Shown here in pieces: positions 742 through 40,830 of a DNA stretch of 64,000 nt. Each line of letters begins with the position of its first letter. Position 1 is the stretch's first letter. A program made the position numbers and the translations under genes. Source of the DNA: Lama glama. Taxonomy: Eukaryota. The notes under the pieces are model-generated. The model did no database searches, was not told the DNA's origin, and saw only the letters and a program-made list of their open reading frames with translations. The stretch covers positions 70,248,001 to 70,312,000 of the forward strand of contig CM052816.1 in the NCBI GenBank assembly GCA_028534125.1. Reading direction: 5' to 3'.

Positions 742-1860
742 TTTTTTTTTTTTGTTTTTTGTTTTTTTAATAAGAAGACACCTTCTTTTCCCCCCAGTAA
801 TCACAACTTCTGTTTACTTTTGTTTTGGTCATAGTAACTTTGTCTCAGTGTTTGCTGCAGAACAAAAAAGAGATACCAGCTACTGAATGATTAAGTTTCA
901 GTTTTCTTTTTTAACCAAGTGACCAAAAAAATTTTTTTTTGACAAATTCTGTTTCATGCATAAGCATGACAGTGTCCCCTGTTTAATTATTAGACTTTGG
1001 CAATAAAAAACAGAAACAAAAAATAAGCAGCTACTTGTAGAGAACATGCCAATGGTAAGGGTAGGCTACAGCTTTACTGTAGGATAATTTTTTTTTTTTA
1101 AGGCCTCTCTCTCTTTGGCCATATCAATAATCAGTTCAGACTATTGAATACAGACAAATTTTCAGAATCACTTCTTCACTTCTCCAAAGTCTTCGATGCT
1201 ATCATCATCCACCTTTGGCCGTTTTACCTGAATGGCATCAATTATGTCATCTGTAAAGTCTCCCTAATGATGATTTCATCCTCCCCTGCTACTGAGGCAC
1301 CACAGGAGAATTTCTGAGCAAAAACCTTTGTGCTTCTTTAAGATCAGTTTCAAAAGTTGCAAGGCCACACATTCATGTTACATATTTCTTCTTTGCTCTG
1401 GGAATTTTGGCTGTCATAACCTTTTGGGGTACAGTCTTCTGTTTTTGTTTTATTTGACCCCTCCCACTTCTCTTTTGTTTTCTCTTCTTTTCCTCTTCCC
1501 CTGCTGTTCCTTGACCCTCACTAATTCCAGCTTCTTGTTTGGGTGAATTTTCTACAGTAGGTTTTGCAAACTCATTTGGAAAATTCTTGTCAAACCATTG
1601 TCTACATTTAGCAGCATCAGGTGTGTAAGCGCAGTACTCTGTTGGTAATGAACAGACTCGGCCGTGAAGGACTTGAAGTGGGTAATCGGCATCTAACTTG
1701 TTATTGCTCCTTGGGTCTCCTTTACAGTCATGCCCATTGGAGTCACAAATGTCTGTGGCTATTTCACAAACCCAGGTGGTCGTACAGCCTCCACTCCTGC
1801 CACTGCTGCCAGCCGAAATGACACGGGCGGCTCCTCTTTCCTGGCCAGAGCCGCTGGGAG
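742..1860 (-). pseudogene. DENR: DENR (density-regulated re-initiation and release factor) processed pseudogene; CDS remnant 1168-1762
   Basis: Minus-strand translation reads (M>I)[31 protein letters not shown]...[63 protein letters not shown]...[14 protein letters not shown]. Intronless. Start ATG>ATA (1760-1762), premature TGA (1373-1375), 1-bp deletions near 1322 and 1266. GC-rich 5'UTR to ~1860; T-rich tract at 742-768 is the likely poly(A). Confidence 0.95.
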
Positions 1861-1872
1861 ATTGGGTTTCTT

Positions 1873-1990
1873 TTTTTTTTTTTTTAACATTTTTATTGAT
1901 TCATAATCATTTTACAGTGTTGTGTCAAATTCCAGTGTTCAGTACAATTTTTCAGTCATACATGGACATATACACTCATTGTCACATTTT
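1873..1990 (-). mobile_element. Very short 5'-truncated young L1 3' end with 15-bp TSD
   Basis: Poly(T) followed by L1 3'UTR-like sequence similar to 46990-47070; GAGATTGGGTTTCTT at 1858-1872 and 1991-2005. Confidence 0.85.
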
Positions 1991-14571: not shown

Positions 14572-15155
<584 letters not shown>

Positions 15156-16156: not shown

Positions 16157-16397
16157 AGACTGCACTGTCTCTGAGAATTATTATTTGCTCAAGGAAATCT
16201 GTGGGTGTGTGTCTATCCAAAGTTACCAATGAGAAACTAAAGAATTCGGAAGGGATTCAAGAAGATTCTGAGGACAAAGACATATCTTTATTACTCTCTA
16301 ACAGAGAGGCCCTGAAGTGTGCCTAGACTGGGAAATGAGTCTGTCACATATGGCAGTGTAGGCTGTGTACTGTGTAACTCCAGAGATTACCTTTCAT
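16157..16397 (+). repeat. Left arm of a ~240-bp inverted duplication; the inner ~60 bp is a MER91-like half
   Basis: Aligns with the reverse complement of 17597-17828, e.g. agactgcactgtctctgagaattattatttgctcaaggaaa vs agactgcactatctctgagaattatgatttgatcaaggaaa. Confidence 0.9.
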
Positions 16398-16429: not shown

Positions 16430-17592
16430 ACCTGTCTTCCCCAGTTATTTCGAGACAAGTTCATTCTTGAATTTTATAATTTGCTCCCCCTCATTTTTAT
16501 CCTTACTAATTTTTGTCTACTTGTGCTATCAATTATTGAGAGAGGATATGTTGAAACTTTTGACTATAATTGTGGGCTGTCTATTTCTTCCTTTAATGTC
16601 TGTTGGTTTTTGCTTCACATATTTTCAAACATTGTTTTTTAAGATGCTTATATATTTGTAATTATTATGGCCTCTTGACTCCTTTATCATTATTAAATGT
16701 CCCTGTTTATCCCTGATATTTCTTGTTCTGAAGTTTACTTTCTCTGATATAAATATAACCGCTTTAGCTTTCTTATGCTTAGTGTTTGCATAGTGTATAT
16801 ATTTACATCCTTTTACTTTTAACCTATTTGAGTGTTTTTTTTTAAAGTGAGTTTCTTGGAAACAGCATATCATTGAGTTTTGCCTTATTAACCAATCTGA
16901 TGATCTCTGCCTTTTAATTGGAATGTTTAGGCCATTTACATTTAATGTGGTGGTTGTAGTTCTGCTTAAATCTATCACCTTGCTATTTGTTTTTGACTTA
17001 TCCTGTATTTCCTTTGTTCCGTTTTCCCTCTTGCCTTATTTTGATGAACTACATATTTTGGATAATTGTACTTTCTCTACTGTTGGTTTATTGGTAATAC
17101 CTTAATTCCTCTTTATTTCATATTTTTGGTAGTTGCAGTAGAACTTACAGTATACATCTTTAATTATCACAGTTTGCCTTTAAATAATATTATACCACTT
17201 TATATTTAGTATAAGAATCTTACAACAGTATTTGTTCATTTTCATCCCTCATCCTTTGTGGTATTTTATATATAAGACCAATGATAGAATGTTATTATTA
17301 TTGCTTTAGCTAGTTATTTACTTTTTAAAAAGATTTTTGAAAGTTCTTTATGTTTACTTACACATTTACTGTCCCTGGTCCTCTTTATTCCTTTGTGCAA
17401 ATCCAAATTTCCATCTGGTATTATTTTCTTTCTGCCTGAAGAACTTCCTGTAGTGCAGTTCTGTTGGTGATGAATCTCTCAGCTTTTGTTTGTCCCAACA
17501 ATCTTTATTTTGCCTTCATTTTTGAAAAATATTTTCCTGGATGTAGAATTCTAGGTTGACAGTTGTTTTCTTTCATCACTTTAAAGATGTCA
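16430..17592 (-). mobile_element. Old L1 internal fragment: ORF1 C-terminus, inter-ORF spacer and ORF2 endonuclease N-terminus
   Basis: ORF 16625-16978: TLNVNGLNIPIKRQR..DW...ICCFQETH...RLKVKG..IHYAN (L1 endonuclease). Around 17400-17590: DIFKVMKENNCQPRILHPGKIFFKNEGKIK (ORF1 C-terminal domain). Confidence 0.9.
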
Positions 17593-17596
17593 TATC

Positions 17597-17828
17597 ATGA
17601 AAAGCAAGTCGTGGAGTTTTGTGTTACACAGCCTGCATCACCATATGTGTCAGTCCTGTGTCCCAATCCAGGCACACTTCAGGGTCTCTCTGCTAGTGTG
17701 TGATAAAGATATGTCCTTCTCCTTCCAATTCTCTTGAATTCTTCGAGTTTCCTACTGGCAACTTTGGATAGAACACACACACACATGTTTCCTTGATCAA
17801 ATCATAATTCTCAGAGATAGTGCAGTCT
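17597..17828 (-). repeat. Right arm of the inverted duplication; the inner part is a MER91-like half
   Basis: Reverse complement matches 16157-16397. Confidence 0.9.
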
Positions 17829-19341
17829 AATTCCCTATTTAGGCAGAGAAAGATTTTCCTTAACATGTTGATCTCCACGTCACCCAAATCTGGGTGACAG
17901 TTGTTTCCTCAGGGGCCCTGTCACCCACGTATGGGTGACGCTGTCCTTCATCCAATTATGCAGGTTTTTACAAGTAATTTGCAACAGTTTTCATTTGTAA
18001 TGTAAGTACTTAATAGTAACAACATATAAGTATATATGCAGATAAAAATATTTTCTTTTGAACAAAATGATGTAATATTGCTTTACTTTCTTATGATATT
18101 TGCTGAAACAGTTTATACAACTCTGTGGTGTTTTGGGACAACTAGGACAATATGTTCCTGTTTTTTTACATTTTTTTCTAGATTGTTACCATTCCAAATT
18201 TTGCCTGCTTTTCTGATAACAGAAGATGCATATTCTTCTGATTGTTTTGCTTGTGGATTTTTTCTAATTTGTAGATTGTAAGTTGCTTCTCCTTTATCCC
18301 TTTGCATATTATTGGACCTAATATTTGGAGAATATAACCATTCCTTAACTAAAATTTCCCTATATTCTGATATTTTAATTTTTTTATTTGCCTTTGCCTG
18401 GGATGTGCATTTAGAACAGAAATCCCAATAAGTAGATGTAGTGCTAATTTCTGGTACCATTTGATACTTTTTCATAATGTCATTGCATACAAAACCATCT
18501 GGTCACTTCTATCAATGCTACACTTTCCTTTATTATAATCAAGTATGGCTAGTGGCTTCATTTTTATAAGATTATGGTGATAAGCAGATGAATTTGAATT
18601 GGACACCATCATGGGTGCATGTTTTGCTGAAAGTATTCTTATATCTTAAACATCTTTCCATTTCAGAATGTTGTCTTCTTGCTACACCATTTCTTTTTAG
18701 AGGATAGGATGTAACATCTTTTGACATCAACTTTTTATTATGCTGTACAGTCCCAACAACATGAGTTTTCAAACTCAAAAATTTTAGGGCCAATTCATAG
18801 CTGGAGTAGAAGTTACCTACATACAAGTTATGTCCTTCATTCAGTAATTTTTCTGCAAGCTCACTGAAAACATTTTAAACTAATCCAATTTGCCTGACTC
18901 TACTAGTTTCTCATCCAGAATATATTTTTATCGACCATGTATAACCTTCATTTGAACATAACTTAATTTTATTCCATACTTGTGTGTCTTAATTTGTATA
19001 TATTGCCTAAATATAAGCCTTCCCTTCCAAGGAACTATTGTCTCATTGATTATGAGATCTGGGCCTGGTGAAAAAATTTTTTGATAATTTTCAAAGTGTT
19101 AATCAATGGCAATAGTTTTCCAAACCTATCACATCTTTCAATCATTTCATTCTTTACAAAGTGTAAATTTGATAATAATAATTCAAAACAATTACAAGAC
19201 ATTATGGTACGCAGCAATGTGAAATTTTAAAGGAAATCTTTTGACCAATATTTAGTCATAGATATTGGTTTCACTAGACCCATCCAAATCAGAAGAGCAA
19301 GGAATTTTTAAATTTCTTCAGAAGTTGGTTTCCACTTCTTT

Positions 19342-20002
19342 TTTTTTTTTNNNNNNNNNNNNNNNNNNNNNNNNNNNNNNNNNNNNNNNNNNNNNNNNNN
19401 NNNNNNNNNNNNNNNNNNNNNNNNNNNNNNNNNNNNNNNNNNNNNNNNNNNNNNNNNNNNNNNNNNNNNNNNNNNNNNNNNNNNNNNNNNNNNNNNNNNN
19501 NNNNNNNNNNNNNNNNNNNNNNNNNNNNNNNNNNNNNNNNNNNNNNNNNNNNNNNNNNNNNNNNNNNNNNNNNNNNNNNNNNNNNNNNNNNNNNNNNNNN
19601 NNNNNNNNNNNNNNNNNNNNNNNNNNNNNNNNNNNNNNNNNNNNNNNNNNNNNNNNNNNNNNNNNNNNNNNNNNNNNNNNNNNNNNNNNNNNNNNNNNNN
19701 NNNNNNNNNNNNNNNNNNNNNNNNNNNNNNNNNNNNNNNNNNNNNNNNNNNNNNNNNNNNNNNNNNNNNNNNNNNNNNNNNNNNNNNNNNNNNNNNNNNN
19801 NNNNNNNNNNNNNNNNNNNNNNNNNNNNNNNNNNNNNNNNNNNNNNNNNNTGATGGACATTTAGGCTGTTTCCATGTTTTGGCTATTGTAGATAGTGCTG
19901 CTATGAACATTGGGGTGCAGGTGTCATCCTGAAGTAGATTTCCTTCTGGATACAAGCCCAGGAATGGGATTCCTGGGTCATATGGTAAGTCTATTTCTAG
20001 TC
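19342..20002 (-). mobile_element. Young 5'-truncated L1 inserted in the piggyBac, mostly covered by the N gap
   Basis: Poly(T) before the gap; after the gap, L1 ORF2 C-term (DTCTPMFIAALSTIAKTWKQPKCPS); TSD TTGGTTTCCACTTCTTT at 19325-19341 and 20003-20019. Confidence 0.9.
19351..19850. other. Assembly gap (500 N)
   Basis: Run of N. Confidence 1.
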
Positions 20003-21294
20003 TTGGTTTCCACTTCTTTATTCAAGTATATTCTGTATTCAGATGTTGAAACAATTTTTGTTCTGCATATCTGTCTCCTTTACCAGAAGGTTTTTATTTA
20101 ATCATATAAAAATAGCAAAAGAACTTCGCCTGGGCTGATAGCACAAGGGAATTCTGTCAGAAGTCCACTTTTTCCTGTCAATATATATATATATATGACT
20201 TTTGTCTGCCAGTAAACTCTTTCTACTAAGTATTGTCCAGTGCACCATCATCAAGATCATCTATTTCTTTCTCTACAACTAATTGTTCTAAAGCCTCCTA
20301 AATGTTTTCAACTTCAACATCATCTTTCTCCTCATTCTCTGAGCTTGAACTTGACAAAATTTTATTTATGTACCTTCTTCTGACATGGATCACTTCATCA
20401 TCACTACTAGTGTCACTTTCGGCTGTCTTTTTACATTGTCTGACAGACATTGTAAGGATACAAAAAAAATCACAGAACGATACTTGAAGGATGCATAGAG
20501 TTTGAGATGCAGAATAAAACTGCTGAGCCAAATCAAACAGAGTGGCGAACAAAAAGTACCGTTCTAAACAACTGGTTATCTATCAATTCCACTAATCAGA
20601 TCATATATCACTCTTCAGTTAACGAATATGAAAGTAACACCACAGCATCCCACACTATTCCATTACCCGAATTAATTATGTGCAGAATAATAACATTCCA
20701 AGAAGAAATAAAACTGTAAAAGGTTGAAAATTGAATATAAGAAATTGTTTTTTAAAACAATTCCAATTATACTGGAAAAACAAAAAGATTGATTTTAAGT
20801 ACATCTATTGTTAGTGTGTCACACTGTGGTGAAGTGTGAATTGGGGACCCCACAGGAAACACACCTGATCCACAGTAGGTGATCAATGTGTTCAGTCAAT
20901 GTTATCTGCCTGCAGCACTTTACGTAATCATCCAGAGAACATTCAGTTCCCCCATCTAATGTTCGGATTCATACTGTGTCTTGCCTTGCACAAAATATTA
21001 GATTAATAGTATGAGTAGATAACAGGATTATCTTCTGACCTCCTCTTTTGCTTACACAAAGAATTGGTAAAAATTTTGAAATGATTTAAATTGGGCCACA
21101 TCAAGTTCTTAGAAAAGCTCTGTAATTCAGGGTTGCAGCTGCCCAATCTCCTCTTAATTAGAGGAGATGTGACTGTGTGTTTGTTTTTAATTTTCCGTTA
21201 CATTTGTATAATATCATTCCTCTCCTGTTAAAGAGAGGACTGATTATTCTCTCCTTTCGGGTCTCAGTATATCCTGAAGATCAATCATAACACC

Positions 21295-39284: not shown

Positions 39285-40830
39285 ACGGGAGCATTCTCTG
39301 ATGCTCGATTCACATCCCCTCTGTAAGGTCAAAACACCTATCACCAACTGCTCTGAGTTTTAGCTTTCAAAGGATCAGAGTTGCTTTGTGCATGGAATTT
39401 ACCCTTGACTGAAGGAAACTGTCTCACGCAAGGTTACTCTCTTTCCCATGGTATGGCCCGTGGTCAGTGTCTGGGCACTTAGCCCCAAACTCTTGTCTAA
39501 ATTTGAGACAACTCTAAGAGCCATGCTGGCTTCAGAGCTTCTCATAGGATTGTCTGTCTTAGCTAAAACTACATTGCAGGTCAGGTCTTCACTCTGCCTT
39601 CCAGCCACTCCTGCTTTCTTCACTTCCTTACAAGTGTATTTCACAAGAGCATCCCCCACCCACTCTGCCCCTGGCCAGCCAGCCTGCATGCAACTTTCCC
39701 TCTCTGTTTCCAGGAAATGTATTCAAGCCAGTGGAACAAGAATGATTCTGGAAACAGTCTCTAAAATGGAATCATGAAGATGGATTACTCAGTGATAGGT
39801 TGTCAGTGAGGCCCTCATCACTGGTGGTAAGTGGAATGTGGCTAATCCCTGCCATGCAAATGATGTGCAATTGTTAAAACTTTCACCAGGGATGAACATA
39901 CAGGTGGAAGGAGACATACGGAGCAATACAGTATTTTTGACACTTGAGGGGTATGAGGGAAGTGGTAACTCTAATAACTATGGAATTGGTTGGCTTTCCT
40001 GAGAACCACTGAATCATGGGTGGTATGGTGACAATTGTAAAGTGCTTATTTACAGATCAAGGTAAAATATAAAAGCCAAATTGTCTTCTTGTGAGCATTC
40101 AAGGAAACCTTTACTCTTCTGCAGCCAGAGGACAGAGTAGAACACCAGGCTTAGGCTTAATCATTAGAGTAGTGAAGTTTGAGAAGGTTGAATTCTTATA
40201 CCAGTAGGTATTCTACATCGAGCTCAGGGCACAAATAGGGAAGGAATGGGACACTGGGACTTAGAATGGGGACATCTGAGTAGATTTACTTCAGAACCTT
40301 GAGCTCCTAGAATCTCCTGAAACCTCCAGTCTCTTTGAAGTGGTTCATTCCCCTGTTAGAAAATAGTGAGACCATTAGATTTGAGATAGGGACATCTGGG
40401 TAGGTCCACTCCAGAACCTCGAGCTTCAGAAGTGGTTTATTCTCCCCATTAGAAAATAGTGACTGCCTGTTGCTTTAAGATGATGCAAAGGCCTCAAATG
40501 AGCTAGATGCTTACAAGAACTTGTTCTCCTCAAGATCTAGATCAAATTCTCCTTAAGGCAATCAGAGTCAAATCCCATAGTCTGGCAGCAATACTCAGAT
40601 CCCAACAGAGGCAGGCTGGACTCTGTTGGTCTGCCAAAGGAGAAGAGGGATTTTGTGCCAAAGAGGCTGAAGAATATGCCTGCAGTTTTGGAATACTTTA
40701 CATTGGAACGAAACTTGAAGATGCTGGATGAAGGAAGGTAGAACATATAATTAGATATGGGAGCATTCTCTCTTGATATAGCATTTAACACTCTGGTAAG
40801 AATTCTAGTAGGCATTGTTTTGTGTCCACG
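39285..40830 (+). mobile_element. ERVL/ERV16-like provirus remnant: LTR16-like LTR (~39285-39730), PBS and degenerate gag-region internal sequence
   Basis: LTR16-like 'gagacaactctaagagccat...ttccaggaaa', then a PBS-like 'tggaacaagaatgattct'; the internal region is colinear with 53690-54650. Confidence 0.7.

Follow-up and report, generated by a model that had tools for sequence, protein, structure and literature searches.

A full-length piggyBac element in the llama window

The window, the whole stretch of 64,000 nucleotides of Lama glama DNA that was analyzed, contains a dead full-length piggyBac element on the minus strand. The piggyBac proper extends from 17864 to 20890 and measures 2,349 bp once an inserted L1 is removed (Table 1), in line with the ~2.35 kb given in an earlier note on this DNA. 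Every coordinate in that note held up on direct reading of the sequence, including the flanking TTAA (17860-17863) and TTCA (20891-20894) on the plus strand. It had traced a minus-strand transposase from the ATG at 20450 and set a match to DDE_Tnp_1_7 (PF13843) as the test of identity; when we scanned six pieces of the transposase, four matched this profile above the cut-off, in the profile order 36-113, 116-158, 165-248, and 297-349. The other two pieces, the N-terminal one and the cysteine-rich tail, gave no Pfam match. The tail, also described previously and located by us at ~18093-18230, aligned to Polistes protein P0006 through three CxxC motifs plus a His, and P0011, a relative, gave a sub-threshold match to zf-Tnp_2.

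Table 1. Features of the piggyBac element and its L1 insert (window coordinates)
Feature	Coordinates	Strand	Basis
TTAA target-site duplication, element 3' side	17860..17863		Sequence; present at the same end in 7/7 full-length copies
3' terminal inverted repeat, 13 bp, family majority CACGTTGATCGCC	17864..17876	-	Multi-copy alignment; end profiles, 41 + 36 rows
Subterminal 20-bp palindrome 1, retained in 83-bp miniatures	17879..17898		Sequence
Subterminal inverted repeat, 3' copy	17902..17918		82% complementary to 20845-20861
Subterminal 20-bp palindrome 2, missing from 83-bp miniatures	17920..17939		Sequence
C-terminal cysteine-rich domain remnant	18093..18230	-	Translation; aligns with Polistes P0006 tail; no Pfam match alone
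Transposase core remnant	18382..19341	-	PF13843 in four pieces; codon table
L1 target-site duplication, copy 1, 17 bp	19325..19341		Exact duplication
5'-truncated L1 insertion, poly(A) end	19342..20002	-	ORF2 C-terminal piece 19851-20000; N gap 19351-19850
L1 target-site duplication, copy 2	20003..20019		Exact 17-bp duplication
Transposase N-terminal part, acidic, Ser-rich	20020..20450	-	ATG at 20450; alignment of family majority with P0006 begins at residue 1
5' untranslated region	20451..20877	-	Alignable across full-length copies
Subterminal inverted repeat, 5' copy	20845..20861		Pairs with 17902-17918
5' terminal inverted repeat, 13 bp	20878..20890	-	Multi-copy alignment, end profiles
Target-site duplication, 5' side	20891..20894		TTCA on plus strand = TGAA on element strand, one base changed

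The catalytic codons read as before: AAT at 19045-19047 (D1 to N), GGT at 18815-18817 (D2 to G), and an intact D3 codon, GAT, at 18511-18513, with a second intact Asp codon, GAC, nearby at 18502-18504. An alignment census of the window copy counted ~13 in-register stops, 9 frameshifts, the two triad changes, and the L1 insert, which bears out its earlier description as dead. The terminal repeats of the window copy alone agreed at 10 of 13 bases, a likeness that does not go beyond chance, with eight such pairs found within the window under relaxed flanks. The element ends were set by multi-copy alignment and not by the window copy alone.

The identity of the interruption as an L1 was confirmed by a match to L1 ORF2p (E 2e-15), a poly(A) end, and an exact 17-bp duplication beginning at 19325 and 20003. 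The 678-bp span previously assigned to it does not stand as a length, since an assembly gap (19351-19850) fills 500 of the 678 positions with N and leaves the true length of the insert unmeasured. The same assembly has two small contigs in which the L1 3' tail is joined to the downstream half of the element.

Full-length copies and miniature derivatives

We searched the genome itself with each half of the element and scored the best 40 of 230 candidates and the best 40 of 45 candidates, respectively. These searches found at least seven full-length copies including that in the window, the six others being uninterrupted and 2,295-2,368 bp long, together with two long cut-short copies and many internally deleted ones. 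The full-length copies lie on contigs C1, C2, C8, and C14 in unrelated flanks and end at TTAA; this target site was present at the 3' end in all seven and clean at the 5' end in five, with TGAA in the window copy and a damaged end in copy L003. As the earlier note had proposed, genomic copies were collected and a majority built, here from seven aligned full-length copies. Its view of the window element as a rarely preserved complete copy was overstated, given the six uninterrupted copies, one of which (L002) retains all three catalytic Asp codons.

Miniatures fell into size classes of about 83, 330, 495, and 726 bp. Among 41 distinct loci, 16 shared the junction of the ~330-bp class, which joins the first ~224 bp of the element to the last ~102 bp, and other internally deleted loci were ~495 and ~726 bp. 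A 24-base end pattern gave 31 matches, compared with 0 for its control. We fetched 20 of the 31, all new loci, and 19 were miniatures of 78-84 bp; TTAA was present on the unselected 5' side in 16 of the 20. Because only 4 of 36 known 3' ends fit this pattern, the 31 matches lead to a crude estimate of ~280 copies for the family, so that the genome likely holds a few hundred miniatures. With a 14-base terminal pattern, matches numbered 44, versus 10 for its control.

In the end profiles (41 and 36 rows), the 13-bp inverted repeat CACGTTGATCGCC was perfect between the majorities of the two ends. It agrees with the short terminal repeats beginning CC or CAC that characterize the piggyBac superfamily. 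The ends are otherwise asymmetric; a subterminal repeat is common to both, and the 3' end carries two 20-bp palindromes. Cys-rich domains bind subterminal palindromes in piggyBac and piggyBat, according to PMC11707139, and by this analogy the 20-bp palindromes are likely equivalent sites, putatively bound by the Cys-rich domains of the family transposase. The 83-bp class retains ~30 bp from one end of the element and 54 bp from the opposite one, with both terminal repeats and one palindrome. As this class keeps these features and seems to be the most abundant form, its ends were likely sufficient for mobilization in trans. Judged from its sequence, the 83-bp miniature may thus represent naturally minimal ends, with ~30 and 54 bp and a single palindrome having sufficed.

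The ancestral transposase and its decay

The earlier expectation that an ancestral transposase could be read from the copies was borne out. The majority of the seven full-length copies, which suffice to read back the family transposase, yields a 577-codon frame with a DDD triad, a Cys-rich tail, and three residual stops, two of which are TGA where other copies read CGA or CAA. Among the seven copies, D1 is retained in four, D2 in four, and D3 in three, with only D3 left in the window. D1 and D3 stand in CpG context and are therefore frequently lost. In four cases, an Asp GAT following ATC had turned into AGT (D3 in L003, L004, and L006 and D1 in L005). CAAT to CAGT is a mutable context in human mutagenesis work, and CpG decay followed by this mutation would explain the change.

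Each of the seven copies carries at least three stops and at least seven frameshifts. The pooled dN/dS relative to the majority was 0.62 (0.47-0.71 per copy), which falls within the range of a frame-blind, context-matched neutral simulation (0.66; 0.57-0.74) and indicates that the copies decayed neutrally. With this same mutation spectrum reproduced in simulation, a dN/dS below 1 could be dismissed as a sign of selection. Private changes numbered 64-90 per copy and changes shared by a pair only 3-11, and the tree of copies was near-star, with short, weak inner branches; together, these observations point to one burst followed by neutral decay. Neutral decay after entry is also reported for DNA transposons in PMC7070016. 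Of the seven branches, that of the window copy is the shortest (0.072). We considered a subfamily of the window copy and L007, which have the D1 to N and D2 to G changes in common, and rejected it, the five non-CpG changes shared by the two lying inside the 3-11 range of all pairs.

Insect relatives of the family transposase

The insect affinity of the family and its miniature derivatives had both escaped the earlier note, which was right in describing an autonomous, dead, L1-interrupted piggyBac. The first matches of a piece from the window were bee and wasp proteins at 54-65%. Among 103 proteins, the majority protein matched best over its whole length to P0008 of the mason bee Osmia (63.7% over 573 aa), followed by Anthophora (62%) and Polistes (58-60%; P0006, 58%). 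In a careful 20-row tree, the family was sister to seven rows with support of 100/99, and the six named sister rows are all Hymenoptera (bees, wasps, an ant, and a sawfly). Proteins of Dufourea, Papilio, Cataglyphis, and the cat flea join these in a wider insect clade around the family, likewise supported at 100/99. A constraint that grouped the 12 insect-clade rows to the exclusion of the family was rejected (p-AU 9.5e-5) in a test whose group was chosen after the first tree had been seen. A 49-row tree built in quick mode gave the same placement as the careful one, whose 20 rows left out others and included no known mammalian element; the protein databases from which both could draw are rich in insect proteins and nearly devoid of dead mammalian copies.

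The closest relatives are hymenopteran transposases annotated as "PGBD4-like", namely Osmia bicornis XP_029054531 and proteins of Anthophora quadrimaculata, Athalia rosae, Polistes spp., and Dinoponera, which are 58-66% identical to the family protein. These transposases, of the same length class (559-571 aa), are colinear with it along the entire stretch between start codon and Cys tail. Like this family, the hymenopteran group commonly has CAC-type ends and lengths of 2.2-2.4 kb, and many hymenopteran piggyBacs in Table S1 of PMC13416829 end in CACGT. The hymenopteran copies are intact whereas the llama family is dead, and the comparison of the two is one of protein sequence. At ~0.6 substitutions per site, none of these relatives is the donor. 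Osmia P0008 and Athalia P0010 are 92% identical to each other, and the 90% cluster of P0015 brings together proteins of the cat flea, Cataglyphis ants, a sawfly, a Polistes wasp, and a Megalopta bee. Such near-identity across flea, ant, sawfly, wasp, and bee shows that the clade moves between hosts, with recent transfer among insect orders likely from these sequences.

PiggyBat (piggyBac1_ML of Myotis lucifugus; PDB 9c0f) and Trichoplusia ni piggyBac (PDB 6x67/6x68) resemble it in their DDD core, use of TTAA, short terminal repeats, subterminal palindromes, and asymmetric ends, but both are active and belong to a different lineage; P0006 scores 172 and 93 bits to them, and the core piece of L002 scores 40 and 38 bits, respectively. 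The mouse-lemur elements piggyBac1_Mm and 2_Mm with npiggy1-3_Mm are likewise mammalian fossils with non-autonomous partners and a record of horizontal transfer, as described in PMC2997546. The ends of npiggy1_Mm begin CCCTTTGCAC, unlike those of this family, and the lemur miniatures are 240, 276, and 348 bp, with ages up to 38 My.

Three distant piggyBac-derived sequences in the llama genome (C1:575416-576618, C17:17611823-17613070, and C23:4960543-4960968) match P0008 at 26-29%; two are without stops and one has two TAA stops, and by sequence they are probably the host's PGBD genes. Looper, MER75, MER85, and PGBD1-5 are remnants of the piggyBac superfamily in placental mammals and have their superfamily membership in common with the present family.

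In wider searches, metagenome contigs yielded 16 protein loci, all distant at ~40% identity and with ends that did not match, and no match to the 24-bp end pattern, a negative of little weight. Eight of 120 short proteins were nearest to the majority protein, at 44-61% only, and the ESM Atlas gave generic PGBD4-like clusters. Neither protein nor end pattern found a relative in viral contigs, and a viral carrier is therefore without support. Searching protein databases for family copies in other mammals recovered only P0005. This 236-aa database "protein" is the orthologue of the dead copy L004 with TGA read as Trp, a gene-calling artefact.

Age and origin of the family

Half the mean pairwise distance between copies was 0.087 over 1,628 gap-free columns (95%, 0.080-0.093) and 0.071 (0.066-0.077) without CpG columns; twelve 83-bp copies gave 0.091 uncorrected. 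The camelid branch since the pig split amounts to 0.083 over 64 My in Table S3 of PMC10162687. Measured against it, the depth of the family would place entry 55-67 My ago, a date that leans on a camelid host and on this one published branch length, with a generic rate of 2.2e-9 giving 32-40 My instead. P0005 and L004 differ at 11 of 235 residues (~2% at the DNA level, with TGA allowed as Trp), close to the published Camelus-Vicugna distance of 0.020, and this supports the slower scale provided that P0005 derives from Camelus, as may be the case. A depth of 0.071-0.087, where the camelid branch as a whole measures 0.083, makes entry near the camel/pig split probable. The window locus itself was found in 20 runs from five organisms and eight studies, which contained 0.75-0.89 of the sampled words.

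The nesting of the family within an insect clade, far from piggyBat, makes horizontal entry from insects likely. We therefore consider it highly probable that the window holds a dead full-length member of a piggyBac family that entered the germ line horizontally from insects ~55-67 My ago, near the camel split. The nearest insect protein diverges by 36%, which means that the donor itself has not been sampled; a further host in between, be it another vertebrate or an arthropod, is possible, and a blood-feeder such as a flea as carrier is only a lead. The founder would have been ~2.35 kb long, with 13-bp terminal repeats, and its 577-codon DDD transposase would have ended in a Cys-rich tail. By established piggyBac chemistry, this transposase would have bound the ends, cut at TTAA, and inserted the element at new TTAA sites, and it would also have moved internally deleted miniatures in trans. 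A single burst would have been followed by death of the family and neutral decay of each copy, with the L1 landing later in the window copy.

How widely the family is shared among hosts, and whether it is already catalogued, are the points on which other readings come closest. Patchy host distribution would be the usual proof of horizontal transfer. We slightly favor an entry confined to camelids. Entry that preceded the divergence of camels from pigs, ruminants, and whales, and would make the family common to all Cetartiodactyla, has a substantial likelihood that falls somewhat below even. The all-site depth of 0.087 (0.080-0.093), which is at least the 0.083 of the camelid branch, favors it, as does the time scale borne out by the P0005-L004 difference, but the non-CpG depth of 0.071 (0.066-0.077) is less than that branch. 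Cattle, pig, and sheep have been sequenced much more heavily than camelids, yet among 391 fetched proteins P0005 alone gave an out-of-frame match to the family, at the DNA level; this and the empty search of metagenome contigs with the 24-bp pattern count as weak negatives against the wider distribution. There is close to an even chance that the family or its miniatures already have a Repbase or Dfam consensus that papers have not discussed. PMC8605555 counts four piggyBac-like MITE families per camelid genome by Repbase homology, and camelid genomes were run through RepeatModeler in the Zoonomia work. The copy number of the family is low, however, and Zoonomia manual curation, as given in bioRxiv 2022.12.28.522108, centered on repeats below 4% divergence, whereas this family stands at 7-9%. 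Moreover, no camelid or artiodactyl piggyBac family is described in the literature searched, which lay outside Dfam, Repbase, and most subscription papers, and none in the available parts of PMC10140906, PMC12400950, PMC3514880, and PMC6675863. The narrowest reading, that an uncatalogued family jumped from a bee- or wasp-associated insect lineage into the camel stem alone soon after its split from other artiodactyls, is rather unlikely.

Other readings fare much worse. The databases searched contain no consensus proteins of mammalian fossils, which so left no competitors in the tree, but we regard it as very improbable that the family is an old mammalian piggyBac passed down vertically, Looper-like or PGBD-related, and stands close to insects through sampling. 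The depth is only ~0.09, a 64% identity to bees over the whole protein including the N-terminus would be hard to keep since the insect-vertebrate split, and the intact piggyBac-derived genes of the genome itself match P0008 at no more than the 26-29% given above. That closest relatives are insect proteins might also suggest insect contamination of the assembly, an explanation rendered scarcely credible by copies on chromosome-scale contigs amid mammalian L1s and pseudogenes, by their CpG decay, and by the recovery of the window locus across organisms and studies. A domesticated or still functional gene, with the frame retaining coding sense, has a practically negligible probability; raw dN/dS is below 1 in each copy, but it equals the neutral-mutation expectation, and stops and frameshifts occur in every copy. 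Domesticated PGBD genes are recognized as single-copy intact ORFs under purifying selection, a description that this family does not fit.

The mechanism is that of an ordinary piggyBac, and the interest of the family lies in its likely insect-to-ungulate transfer at a datable node, its readable ancestral protein, and its natural 83-bp minimal element. Mammalian piggyBac invasions on record in PMC2997546, PMC10162687, and PMC5381638 are mainly those of bats and primates, and recent gain of DNA transposons is linked to carnivory in the Zoonomia analysis. An ungulate-line family with a clear insect sister group would add an independent entry with an identifiable source clade. If the jump was camelid-only, it would be a piggyBac invasion of a herbivorous ungulate line, beyond the bat and primate cases. 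An age at the camel/pig split would also make the insertion sites ready-made presence/absence markers for that node.

Other features of the window

The element adjoins one of two copies of an LTR-like repeat (17625-17863 and 16157-16369), which are 78% identical and in opposite orientation and flank an old L1 fragment at ~16500-17600. A look for an empty site by way of this repeat found a sole other copy, which stops short of the junction. At 39399-39722 (minus strand), a 107-codon open frame has the look of a coding exon, without a Pfam match. A DENR-like intronless frame at 1373-1900 (minus strand) matches DENR_N and is likely a processed pseudogene; beside it, a short piece at 1867-1990 resembles repeat sequence in three fetched loci. 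Finally, a processed pseudogene of the ribosomal protein S17 family, which we take to be RPS11-like, lies at 14646-15017 on the minus strand.
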